Assembly (NCBI GenBank): GCA_046482545.1
Contig: JAWOEX010000021.1
Coordinates: 201,971 to 265,970, forward strand
DNA: 64,000 nt
Direction: 5' to 3'
Origin: Candidatus Thorarchaeota archaeon
GTDB lineage: Archaea; Asgardarchaeota; Thorarchaeia; Thorarchaeales; Thorarchaeaceae
Part shown: piece after piece, positions 54,185 through 57,348 of the stretch
Layout: every line of letters starts with the position of its first letter
How positions within the stretch are numbered: position 1 is the stretch's first letter
Notes under the pieces: generated by a model
Database searches by the model: none
Seen by the model: only the letters and a program-made list of their open reading frames with translations
What the model was told of the DNA's origin: nothing
Position numbers and translations under genes: made by a program

Positions 54185-55423
54185 ATGAATTTTGAAGAGA
54201 CGGACGAACAGCGGATGTTTCGCGAGGCTGTTCGTGACTTCGCAGAGCGCTATGTGGAAGCAGCGTGGCGTGACTACGATAGGAATCACGAAATCCCGCG
54301 CGACATCATCAAGAAGATGGCTGAAATGCAGCTGTGGGCACCCACAGTCTCCGAAGAATACGGAGGCGCAGACCTGTCCATGACTATGGCCTGCATCGCG
54401 GCAGAAGAGCTTGCGAAGGCAGACCTATCAATCGCACTCCCAGTCATGTACCTTGTTGAGGCTTCATGGGCTTTCGTTTTCGACAAGTACGGCACCCACG
54501 AAGCAAAGAGCGAAATCCTGCCCAGAGTTACCGACGGTGACCTCTTCTTTGGCATCGCTACTACCGAGCCAACAGGCGGCTCAGACCTTGTCAACACCAC
54601 CAAGACAATCATCGAACCAAAGGACGACAAGTTCGTGGTCAATGGTGAAAAGGTCTACATCAGCGGAGTCAATGAATCAGAGAAGTACGGCGGTGTCTAC
54701 TGGACCCTAGCAAAGGAAGATCCCAAGGGCGACCACAAAGACTTCACCGCTTTCATTCTGCCCCTCAACATGGGCGACGGACTCCACCCCGGTATTACCA
54801 CAACACTCTTCGAGGACATGGGACGAATGGGTGTCTCCACTGGCGGTTTCAACATCGAAGACGTCGAAATCCCCGAACACTATATCATCGGTGAGCGAGG
54901 GAAAGGCTTCTATCGAGCCATGGGCGGGTTTTCGTTGGCACGAGTTCTTATCGGTGCTACCTGCTTAGGCTCAGCGCAAGCTGCCCTAGATATTGGCATC
55001 GATTATGTCAAGCAGCGCAAGCAGTTCGGCAGACCACTTGCAGCCTTCGAAGGGATACAATTCGAAGGTGTTGATGCGTGGATGGCCCTGCAGGCTGACA
55101 GATTGCTCACGTACAAAGCGGCATGGATGGTAGACCAGTACTATCGAGAAGAAAATCCCAATATTTCCCAGCTGGATATAGCCAAATGGACCGCTGCATC
55201 CAAGTACCGAGCACCACATGATGCTCTAGACGCGATAGAAACTGCCATGACATGGCATGGGGCCTTTGGTTATACGAAGGAATGTCCACTCGAAGCAGCC
55301 TACCGAGGCGTCCGGTCGTACACGGTTGGTGCAGAAGGTGGCAGTCACATCCAAAAAGTGGTAATCGGCAGAGAACTTTTTGGACCTGAGAACCTGCCAT
55401 ATCGCCAAGAGAAGCAGATTTAG
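54185..55423 (+). CDS. Acyl-CoA dehydrogenase
   Basis: EEYGG, TEPTGGSD, NGEK.YIS, GERGKGF, R.QFGRPL..F, HGA.GY..E and catalytic AEG motifs. Confidence 0.95.
   Translation: MNFEETDEQRMFREAVRDFAERYVEAAWRDYDRNHEIPRDIIKKMAEMQLWAPTVSEEYGGADLSMTMACIAAEELAKADLSIALPVMYLVEASWAFVFDKYGTHEAKSEILPRVTDGDLFFGIATTEPTGGSDLVNTTKTIIEPKDDKFVVNGEKVYISGVNESEKYGGVYWTLAKEDPKGDHKDFTAFILPLNMGDGLHPGITTTLFEDMGRMGVSTGGFNIEDVEIPEHYIIGERGKGFYRAMGGFSLARVLIGATCLGSAQAALDIGIDYVKQRKQFGRPLAAFEGIQFEGVDAWMALQADRLLTYKAAWMVDQYYREENPNISQLDIAKWTAASKYRAPHDALDAIETAMTWHGAFGYTKECPLEAAYRGVRSYTVGAEGGSHIQKVVIGRELFGPENLPYRQEKQI
55374..55413 (+). repeat. 40-bp direct repeat, copy 1 (inside the acyl-CoA dehydrogenase 3' end; attL-like)
   Basis: AACTTTTTGGACCTGAGAACCTGCCATATCGCCAAGAGAA, exact match to 57131-57170. 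Confidence 0.95.
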
Positions 55424-55436
55424 ACTAGAAAACGCG

Positions 55437-55481
55437 GAAGGGAACAGGTATAGTTCCCTTCACTCCCTCTTTTTTTTTTTT
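55437..55481 (+). terminator. Hairpin plus T-tract terminator
   Basis: GAAGGGAAC-aggtata-GTTCCCTTC followed shortly by a run of about 12 T. Confidence 0.8.
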
Positions 55482-55522
55482 CAATGAATGGAGAGAAATA
55501 GAACTTCTCAGAAGGGCTGTTG

Positions 55523-55666
55523 CTATCTACTCCTCTTGATTAATCTCTGAATATCACGAGCATCCAGAGTGTAGCCATACTAATCATAGAGCTTCTCACC
55601 TATAGATGCGTACGAGAGTCCATTCCTGCGGCATTCCTTCATGAACTCGATTCCTTCTTCAGGCAT
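55523..55666 (-). pseudogene. Small HTH-like ORF with an internal TAG
   Basis: MPEEGIEFMKECRRNGLSYASIGEKLYD*YGYTLDARDIQRLIKRSR*; TAG at 55580-55582. Confidence 0.5.
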
Positions 55667-55724
55667 AGGATTGGAAAAGGTAAACCTATATAATTATAGA
55701 CATAATAAGAATTGGGAGTTAGTA

Positions 55725-56682
55725 ATGAAGTGTAATCAATTAAAGAAGATTGAGACCGTATTTGTTATACTGATCTTCCTGATTCCAACTGCTAGTTTTT
55801 TTTTTGAGTAGAGTTGTATATTCCAACGATTATGTTAAGGTCGATTTGGAAGAACAATTTCGTGCTGCAGCAGACGGAAGTATTGGAATCAAAGAAAGCA
55901 CAGCAGATGTAGGAGAAATGGTATTCAGCAATAGCGATGTTTCCCTGTATCTTCGAATCCTCAAGGCTGGTCAGCACATCAAGTTAACCTACCTTTCAGA
56001 AGCTGGTGGAAGTCAACTCGAGTTTAGAACAATGCAAATTATGAACGGCTACAGAACCATGATAATCGTGAATGGTCAAAAGATGGCGGATAGAATGTTT
56101 CCACACAACATCTTGGCACCAATAGATGATGGCGATACAAATGAGAGTAGTAGATTCACTACTGCGGGTCTTGAGATAGATGGAGATATTGCTGCCAGCT
56201 ATACATACAGATACTGGGACGGTATCAAGCAGGTGACAGGGCCATCCTATCTCATAAAGTATCATCATCCGGATAGAGCAACTTATGGCATAGGGACATG
56301 GCAAACAGTCACACTGATAGGAAATAACATTGACCATAATCAAATGAGTGAAGCATTATCTGATGTGGCCGCATCAGGTGGTTGGACTATCATATTCGCA
56401 ACAATTGGTGCGGCTATAGGCGGTACACATGGTGCATTCGTAGGTGCCTTATTGGGTGTGCTCTTTGGTTATGCTACGTCTGCAATACTCAAGGATGAAA
56501 ATGGATGTATCTGGTGGTGGTGGGGTCAAGACTATGGCGAATGGTTATTATCGAATATCGGCTGGCTTTCAGCAAGTGGTCCTCTTGGAATGGCTCAGGC
56601 CGCAACACAATTTTGGCTGAATGGCTATCTCAGAGTTGGCTCGGCTACGCTTTACGATGGAATAGGAGCAGGCAACCCATGA
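55725..56682 (+). CDS. Putative secreted glycine-zipper protein, frameshifted at T10 (55796-55805)
   Basis: ATG 55725 gives MKCNQLKKIETVFVILIFLIPTASFFFE*; removing one T fuses it to the 292-aa ORF (318 aa total). Contains IGAAIGGTHGAFVGALLGVLFG. Confidence 0.7.
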
Positions 56683-57113
56683 AATCGATGCATTTGGGAA
56701 GAGATCGATTGAATCAGGTATTCAGCGATAGAACCTTCGTCGGTGGTGCTATTGTTATACTTGCATCTCTAACTCAAGTAACTCTGAGCCTCAGACAGAC
56801 AGATCCGAATGTGGGACCTCATGATTTGCTCGTATTGTTAGTGGATTTTATTTTCTTTTCCGGAGTAATCTTGATAGCTGATGGATATGTCCGAAGAAAA
56901 GGAATAGCAGACATTTGGGTATCAATGGGACTTATCATAGTTGGAGTGCTGGGTATCGGCCTGTATATTGCCTTTGAACCATTGTTCCTCAATTTCGTAT
57001 GGCCTCATACAATCGCTCTACATTTCTACCTATTCAACTCGCTATGGATACTAGCCTCCGGGCTTTTGATACGTGCATTTGAGAGATATAGAACCAAAGA
57101 GAACAAAGACTAA
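56679..57113 (+). CDS. 4-TM membrane protein, candidate immunity partner
   Basis: ATGA start/stop overlap with the upstream gene; 144 aa with four hydrophobic segments. Confidence 0.7.
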   Translation: MKSMHLGRDRLNQVFSDRTFVGGAIVILASLTQVTLSLRQTDPNVGPHDLLVLLVDFIFFSGVILIADGYVRRKGIADIWVSMGLIIVGVLGIGLYIAFEPLFLNFVWPHTIALHFYLFNSLWILASGLLIRAFERYRTKENKD

Positions 57114-57130
57114 CAAAAACATCGCGCGGA

Positions 57131-57170
57131 AACTTTTTGGACCTGAGAACCTGCCATATCGCCAAGAGAA
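57131..57170 (+). repeat. 40-bp direct repeat, copy 2 (attR-like)
   Basis: Exact copy of 55374-55413; continues in the dehydrogenase frame as ...QEKR followed by TAG TAG. Confidence 0.95.
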
Positions 57171-57348
57171 ACGGTAGTAGTTCAGAAAAGCTGAAAAGAA
57201 TACAGCTAGTTCCCTTGTATTACCTGTCTTCAATATTAACTCTTATGTACTTGTTATTATCGTGAAAGCATACGAAGCCGATTCATCGGAAGAGCTCTTT
57301 TTTGGAATCATATGCTTGCATCATATGGGAATATTGGAGCTGGGTGAA

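Follow-up and report, generated by a model that had tools for sequence, protein, structure and literature searches.

A duplicated acyl-CoA dehydrogenase gene end in a Thorarchaeota contig, probably the remnant of a homing-endonuclease cassette

The 3' end of an acyl-CoA dehydrogenase (ACAD) gene is present twice in the window, the 64,000-nucleotide stretch of a Candidatus Thorarchaeota contig analyzed here, and the 1757-bp unit bounded by the two copies is probably a decayed homing-endonuclease cassette that resembles the mobile open reading frames (mORFs) of fungal mitochondria and is now immobile except for loss or release by homologous recombination. More tentatively, the ACAD tail of Thorarchaeota could be the point of entry for a system of gene capture powered by homing endonucleases, in which one clade of LAGLIDADG enzymes carrying helix-turn-helix (HTH) modules would open the site and double-strand-break repair would stack cassettes in an integron-like manner, the window being a burnt-out example. 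Related genomes, their contigs, and individual loci are cited below by handles beginning with G, C, and L, respectively; G000 is the assembly that holds the window (3.05 Mb in 45 contigs, 98.9% complete), which terminates at a contig end.

The duplicated gene end and the endonuclease stump

The ACAD gene (54152-55423, plus strand) encodes the Pfam domains Acyl-CoA_dh_N, Acyl-CoA_dh_M, and Acyl-CoA_dh_1, and its product is 90.6% identical to the orthologues of two genomes of the same genus, G001 and G002; its start codon is uncertain, since relatives align only from approximately residue 10. A sequence-only reading of the window had reported an exact 40-bp duplication of the end of this gene, and recomputation confirmed that the string at 55374-55413 recurs at 57131-57170, with a start-to-start spacing of 1757 bp. 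With up to three mismatches allowed, the string matched twice in the window and not once in 100 shuffles, and no further copy was found in the rest of the assembly. Copy 1, the attached tail (55355-55482, plus strand), comprises the last 22 codons of ACAD, the stop, a perfect 9-bp hairpin (55437-55461), and a T12 run (55470-55481). Copy 2, the displaced tail (57121-57217, plus strand), reads IARKLFGPENLPYRQEKR followed by two stops, whereas the peptide of copy 1 ends in LPYRQEKQI and a single stop; beyond its stops lies a decayed hairpin, of which the 3' arm alone is retained. These are the two endings that had been read from the sequence, YRQEKQI with one stop and YRQEKR with two. Weaker similarity beyond the repeat, claimed earlier for the downstream side, is present on both sides of the exact core (approximately 59 nt at 86% and then 31 nt at 71%), and the 31-nt block contains TAGTTCCCTT, which is common to both copies. 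Orthologues in the family end in YRQ[ED]KQ[MIL] and a stop, followed by a hairpin and a T/C-rich tract, the same layout as in the window.

The perfect 40-bp tract sits between far more diverged flanks of both tails and looks like the product of gene conversion or crossover between them. In copy 2, two codons read GCG CGG (Ala-Arg), as in the genus-mate G001, and copy 1 has GGC AGA at this place. Release of the 1757-bp unit as a circle, or its loss, by homologous recombination across the 40 bp is possible.

Past the ACAD stop, the minus strand at 55523-55675 holds the last ~50 codons, a C-terminal HTH, of a LAGLIDADG-HTH homing endonuclease (LHE) gene. This stump is interrupted by an in-frame TAG at 55580-55582 and translates as MPEEGIEFMKECRRNGLSYASIGEKLYD, a stop, YGYTLDARDIQRLIKRSR, and a second stop. 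It is 53% identical (E value, 5e-9) to residues 558 to 604 of a 606-aa protein encoded in G011 (L028:9352-11172). The stump and ACAD are convergent, the stop of the stump lying 99 nt past that of ACAD; the G011 gene has the same orientation, with its stop approximately 100 nt past that of ACAD. No other match to the LHE family was found in G000, which therefore has no intact member, so that the cassette cannot home now.

Tail arrays in related genomes

In many genomes of the family, the last ~22 codons of ACAD are repeated downstream of the gene, together with the stop and the hairpin, in 2 to 12 copies. G011 and G007 have three copies each, G010 has several, and G039, assembled as a single contig, has five; G005 has 12 within a stretch of 32 kb and others on two further contigs. 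All displaced tails begin at a common, sharp left edge at (K)IVMG, approximately 63 to 66 nt before the stop; in the window's genus this edge lies approximately 51 to 57 nt before the stop. Differing cargo at the same site in relatives had been proposed as a check on the insertion, and unrelated genes were indeed found between tail copies: those for a subtilase, a beta-propeller protein, a leucine-rich-repeat (LRR) protein (in a G007 cassette), a beta-helix surface protein, and an MFS transporter, as well as ABC transporters, DUF362, an FMN reductase, and a luciferase-like oxygenase. In G002, of the same genus as the window, no second tail was seen within 8 kb; its single tail has different neighbors on both sides.

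A tail copy forms the end of several short contigs, and a number of ACAD contigs are cut off just past the gene, as expected where a repeat interrupts assembly. Such breaks, the metagenome-assembled source, and the position of the window at a contig end would suit an assembly artifact in which two strain variants were joined through a common 40-mer. We regard this as highly improbable, because the repeat is shorter than a read and the same tail-cassette-tail architecture occurs in several independent assemblies, including contigs of 669 kb and 3.16 Mb; moreover, an assembler rarely passes a node twice without read support.

Tails also occur away from the gene. G039 and G047 have no orthologue of the window's ACAD (best match, 34% identity) and still carry tail arrays, which appear to have been orphaned when the target gene was lost. 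The G039 array spans 9162-14164 of L100 (G039:C1:3051000-3070999), and an LHE stump follows its copy at 9919-9978. In G005, additional tail-bounded cassettes were found at L041 (G005:C51, 82.5 to 85.4 kb) and L042 (G005:C28), on contigs without an ACAD orthologue; therefore, tail-flanked cassettes occupy secondary sites too.

The endonuclease family and its association with the tail

The 606-aa G011 protein is publicly annotated as a hypothetical protein and is predicted, from its modeled fold, to be a LAGLIDADG homing endonuclease. Its AlphaFold model has a mean predicted local distance difference test (pLDDT) score of 86.7, and a Foldseek search of the PDB grouped its core with I-SceI, PI-SceI, and I-DmoI, the top matches, with other LAGLIDADG enzymes, and also with WhiA, at a probability of 1.0. 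The identification came from this fold search, a sequence-profile search of the PDB having given weak HTH matches only. An alignment of 11 LHE members contains two invariant LAGLIDADG-type motifs, LLGxxxSDG and FLQGxxDGDG, each motif or helix ending in an invariant catalytic Asp (D352 and D476), and HTH modules lie on both sides of the LAGLIDADG core. The family is multicopy and patchy, with matches in 24 of 41 family genomes and up to 10 in one genome; it was also found in Hermod-, Prometh-, and Woesearchaeota assemblies, and 22 close homologues were present in metagenomic data. Many members of the family, as at L049, L053, L055, L056, L066, and L071, are 800 to 1500 aa long, with an N-terminal HTH module (profile positions ~60 to 290, ahead of the LAGLIDADG core) duplicated once or more, a pattern suggestive of modular expansion of the DNA-binding portion.

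Intact LHE genes lie convergent with ACAD and approximately 5 to 100 nt from its stop in G011 (on a 669-kb contig), G004, G051, and the metagenome contig SDBU01000112 (L099), and an ACAD-adjacent LHE gene in G036 (C89) runs off the contig end; one metagenome scan yielded a single locus. LHE stumps or fragments adjoin tail copies in the second cassette of G011, in G039, G013, and G047, and in the window. Intact genes were found solely beside the attached tail, and G011 has the intact gene in cassette 1 and a stump in cassette 2. In a maximum-likelihood tree of 29 LHE members, the four full-length ACAD-linked genes fell into one clade (support, 100/99) that includes one further member, itself truncated. 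Attached tails linked to an LHE gene read K[LV]V in five of seven cases, LHE-less and displaced tails read KIV (a small sample of nonindependent cases), and the LHE-less ACAD tails of the G002, G005, and G007 types read AAGATCGTCATGG; the K[LV]V tails, of which the one at 55340-55440 of the window is an example, may offer a lead on immunity to re-cutting.

At other loci, LHE genes lie between imperfect direct repeats derived from pieces of the adjoining gene. These measure 50 nt at 88% identity at the LHE of G002:C48, 140 nt at 78% and 113 nt at 76% at two other loci, and 270 nt at 89% at that of G001:C61 (L054, 1167-1436 and 3554-3823), where the repeat is the 5' end of the downstream gene; therefore, the LHE family would also replace gene heads, not tails alone. 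At L054, the displaced gene-head copy forms a 95-aa open reading frame (ORF).

Separate histories of attached and displaced tails

Attached and displaced tails of G011 differ at synonymous sites alone, with ratios of synonymous to nonsynonymous differences of 9:0, 7:0, and 6:0 in three copies, and the first tail pair of G007 gave 4:0. Since untranslated copies would not drift in this manner, the tails appear to have evolved as working ACAD tails in separate lineages and to have been joined later. Within the window's genus, the ACAD genes of G001 and G002 are 94.7% identical, and their last 66 nt form the least similar stretch, at 82% (rank 3 or lower of 394 windows). Compared with the attached tail of G002, the displaced tail of G001 (C37) agrees at 48 of 51 nt and the attached tail of G001 at 42 of 51, a pattern that matches the replaced-tail signature described for mORFs (PMC3630166). 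The G001 tails are mosaic, as those of the window appear to be. Together, the comparisons of tails across relatives support the earlier proposal that copy 2 is the displaced older gene end and copy 1 the end now in use.

Searches for a recombinase

In the sequence-only reading, the unit was an integrating element of the type moved by an integrase, with no recombinase inside and either one in trans or homologous recombination needed for excision. No recombinase was found within the unit, as stated, but a remnant of a mobility gene, the endonuclease stump, is present there. The need for an integrase supplied from elsewhere was not supported, as G000 has no match to either the tyrosine recombinase model PF00589 or the serine recombinase model PF00239 and the insert holds a LAGLIDADG stump instead. 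PF00589 likewise had no match in G011 or G007, and PF00239 none in G007, in G039, or at any array; among 14 control genomes, PF00589 matched in all 14 and PF00239 in 12. Archaea usually encode an Xer-type enzyme, and the lack of a PF00589 match in an assembly as complete as G000 may reflect either a limit of search sensitivity or real absence. The stretches retrieved around PF00589 genes in G005 (eight genes) and G010 (one gene) contained no tail copy. When 52 cassette ORFs were compared all against all by BLAST, no recurrent recombinase candidate and no recurrent uncharacterized family emerged, the only shared genes being ABC transporters and giant repeat proteins. Tyrosine integrases, serine recombinases, and a hidden recombinase family within the cassettes were each rejected on the basis of the two Pfam models and this comparison.

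These results bear directly on the proposal that the unit is an integrase-type element or an integrase-less derivative like the cis-mobilizable elements (CIMEs), with the tail serving as the att site of a recombinase encoded elsewhere and the LHE as cargo or squatter. This proposal accounts for the exact 40-bp core that flanks the unit and for the common left edge of the displaced tails, as expected from one attP extent; it would also suit the large arrays, in which most cassettes have no LHE remnant, and the coincidence in G005 of the highest number of tail copies with the highest number of PF00589 genes (eight). We nonetheless consider it unlikely. In addition to the missing recombinase matches and the lack of tail copies in the stretches retrieved around PF00589 genes, tail pairs in relatives are only 76 to 91% identical, with identical runs as short as 12 to 17 nt.

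A homing model and points that weigh against it

The reading of the unit as a decayed homing-endonuclease cassette implies the following history. The element would have entered ACAD approximately 50 to 65 nt before the stop, bringing a replacement tail with its terminator, a convergent LHE gene, and cargo. ACAD would since have ended in the tail of the element (copy 1), while the earlier tail (copy 2) was moved downstream, where it is decaying, and a later deletion would have taken all of the LHE gene except its last ~50 codons. More generally, we infer that the LHE cuts ACAD tails that have no LHE, near codon -22, and that the break is repaired from a donor with the order tail, LHE, cargo, and tail, the ACAD body serving as the left homology arm and the tail copy as the right arm. 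The recipient would gain a new tail, the LHE, and the cargo, and its former tail would end up downstream. Repeated rounds would stack cassettes into arrays with the newest nearest the gene, an order that fits because intact LHE genes occur only beside the attached tail and G011 has its intact gene in cassette 1 and its stump in cassette 2. After fixation, the LHE would decay as in the usual homing cycle, and the window would represent a late state.

Alternatively, homologous recombination alone may have built the arrays, if incoming DNA with an ACAD tail integrates at the conserved tail and unequal exchange then makes arrays grow or shrink. The perfect 40-bp tract within otherwise diverged copies, the mosaic tails of G001, and the orphan arrays of G039 and G047 are in keeping with such a process. 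However, it leaves unexplained both the sharp left edge at one codon across genera and the tie between one LHE clade and the ACAD site, and homologies of 40 to 66 bp are poor substrates without a break. Recombination alone is therefore, in our view, an improbable account of the whole.

Several observations weigh against a homing origin of the cassettes. Cleavage by the LHE and its target site are themselves inferences, and the integrase searches consisted of two Pfam models, which would miss a divergent or undescribed recombinase. Most cassettes in the large arrays of G005, G007, and G010 have no LHE remnant; therefore, the LHE may occupy a hot spot as one tenant among others rather than drive it. 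Tail arrays exist in G039 and G047 despite their having no ACAD orthologue, and detectable flanking repeats were present at only about one-quarter of the LHE loci examined. With respect to a transfer vehicle, the LHE family had no match among IMG/VR viral contigs, and a virus was rejected in this role. For the window itself, the attached tail of G000 is not an outlier in sliding-window identity to genus-mates, a result that led us to reject a foreign origin of this tail by that measure; the claim of a foreign tail here depends on where the stump lies, on the decayed state of copy 2, and on the two codons GCG CGG.

Comparison with known systems

The closest parallel is with the mORFs of Allomyces macrogynus (atp6) and Glomus sp. 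(atp6, atp9, cox2, and nad3) (PMC3630166). In these, the gene core is followed by an in-frame inserted C-terminal piece, a LAGLIDADG ORF, and, downstream, the native C-terminal piece; differences between the duplicated tails are mostly synonymous and indicate a foreign donor, and the ORF erodes after invasion (PMC3630166). The window, with a stump in the endonuclease position, and its relatives share this order of gene core, inserted tail, endonuclease, and displaced tail, the window having an in-frame inserted end and, 1757 bp on, the native copy. Between them the window retains ~50 codons with a TAG, and the endonuclease ORF is intact in G011, G004, G051, and L099. The synonymous-only tail differences of G011 and G007, the replaced tail of G001, and the eroded LHE genes extend the likeness; a foreign inserted end is observed in G001 and implied in G011 and G007, and in G000, whose tail is no outlier, it is indicated by the two codons only. 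The differences are nevertheless considerable: the site is on an archaeal chromosome and not in an organelle; the LHE gene is convergent and on the opposite strand, whereas mORFs are co-oriented with the gene or fused to it in phase; the LHE is ~600 aa or more in length, with extra N- and C-terminal HTH modules; and unrelated cargo genes and arrays of up to 12 tails occur, with only an endonuclease stump left in the window.

Among Asgard mobile elements, HeimM2 of Candidatus Heimdallarchaeum encodes a homing-endonuclease homologue and an LRR protein, with no integrase reported in the part of the source available (PMC8813620). As described there, it sits between a 16S rRNA gene and a tRNA gene, and its authors (Wu et al. 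2022) suggested that the endonuclease was co-opted for site-specific integration (PMC8813620). It thus shares with the cassettes described here the homing-endonuclease homologue and an LRR gene, here in a G007 cassette, but a duplicated gene tail and a cassette array are not among the features given for it in the same part of that source (PMC8813620). Full-text literature searches found no paper on the Thorarchaeota case.

Other systems resemble the locus in part. CIMEs at the ICESt1/ICESt3 site of Streptococcus thermophilus, the 3' end of fda, derive from integrative and conjugative elements (ICEs), and a tyrosine integrase mobilizes them through their att sites. Like the window's unit, they are short, flanked by direct repeats of a gene 3' end, and deprived of their own mobility gene by deletion, and they occur in tandem with others at one site; here, however, the remnant is that of an endonuclease gene and no integrase was found. 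Integron cassette arrays, which depend on IntI, attI, and attC and have been reported in Archaea too, are similar in forming a one-directional row of unrelated, promoter-poor cassettes of one to three genes, separated by repeats, beside a fixed entry point. In contrast, no IntI or other PF00589 gene was found at the arrays described here, and the repeat is a coding tail with a terminator hairpin that varies between genera and has a fixed left edge within a gene, not an attC hairpin with extrahelical bases. Finally, free-standing homing endonucleases of T-even phages carry out intronless homing, in which flanks are replaced by co-conversion. They too are encoded between genes, cut near the insertion point in alleles that lack them, and are copied together with their flanks, but the phage cases leave no duplicated gene end and build no cassette arrays.

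If the endonuclease is the engine, the arrays represent a means by which Asgard archaea acquire genes with neither integrase nor transposase. A selfish nuclease would keep the end of one housekeeping-type gene open while accessory genes ride along, the cargo observed comprising transporters, surface proteins, enzymes, and nucleases. The mORF mechanism of fungal mitochondria would then extend to archaeal chromosomes, with cargo capture and cassette stacking added to it. The same model would explain why Thorarchaeota assemblies frequently break just past ACAD and why orphan "pseudo-tails" are scattered in the region. The last 22 codons of ACAD may have a history apart from that of the rest of the gene, which would make them a trap for phylogeny, and the LHEs would offer new meganucleases that recognize long sites and carry modular HTH additions. 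To this picture the window contributes a burnt-out example with two tail copies, the replaced-tail signature within its genus, the test of an ACAD-linked LHE clade, and a conserved right flank.

Cargo genes and the remainder of the island

Two cargo genes without a Pfam family occupy the 1757-bp unit, which also contains an AT-rich, promoter-like stretch. Gene 1 (55725-56682, plus strand) encodes a predicted secreted or membrane-anchored protein in two parts, as a T10 run at 55796-55805 cuts the signal-peptide frame (55725-55811) from the main ORF (55804-56682); the split could reflect a pseudogene, a slippage switch, or a homopolymer error. Pfam and ESM Atlas searches gave nothing usable on the function of gene 1. 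Homologues of gene 1 are patchy (7 of 61 family genomes), and an intact 313-aa paralogue with the signal in frame is encoded at G000:C4:4808-5749. Gene 2 (56679-57113, plus strand) encodes a membrane protein of 144 aa with multiple passes; its start codon and the stop codon of gene 1 overlap (ATGA), and the two genes are predicted to be translationally coupled. A weakly similar small membrane gene (5802-6194) lies 3' of the C4 paralogue; therefore, the cargo pair would constitute a two-gene module.

The rest of the variable island (57349-62218) contains no further tail copy, and neither DNA nor peptide searches found a third, decayed tail at its right edge. Beyond it lies a UPF0047 gene (62356-62775, minus strand), the likely conserved right flank, which is 89% identical to L033:16490-16909, the gene that follows the last tail of the 32-kb array of G005. 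On the basis of this match, the island probably extends from 55424 to approximately 62350, with the 1757-bp unit as its first cassette. Its genes at 57349-62218 are not syntenic with the ACAD neighborhood of other genera. They begin with a 456-aa membrane protein (57349-58719) with a C-terminal CxxC...CxxC motif, whose family is multicopy in relatives and never syntenic with ACAD; one homologue (40% identity) is encoded approximately 6 kb from an LHE gene in L062. By Pfam, the remaining genes encode a PDDEXK_4 nuclease (58921-59541), an HTH(DUF7342)-PLD nuclease (60456-61271), and a MobB-like P-loop protein (61712-62218), and a 199-aa ORF on the minus strand lies between the two nuclease genes. 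The region 58921-62218 may represent a defense-type islet inside the same variable region. In G001 (C37), the displaced tail is likewise followed by PDDEXK_4 homologues.

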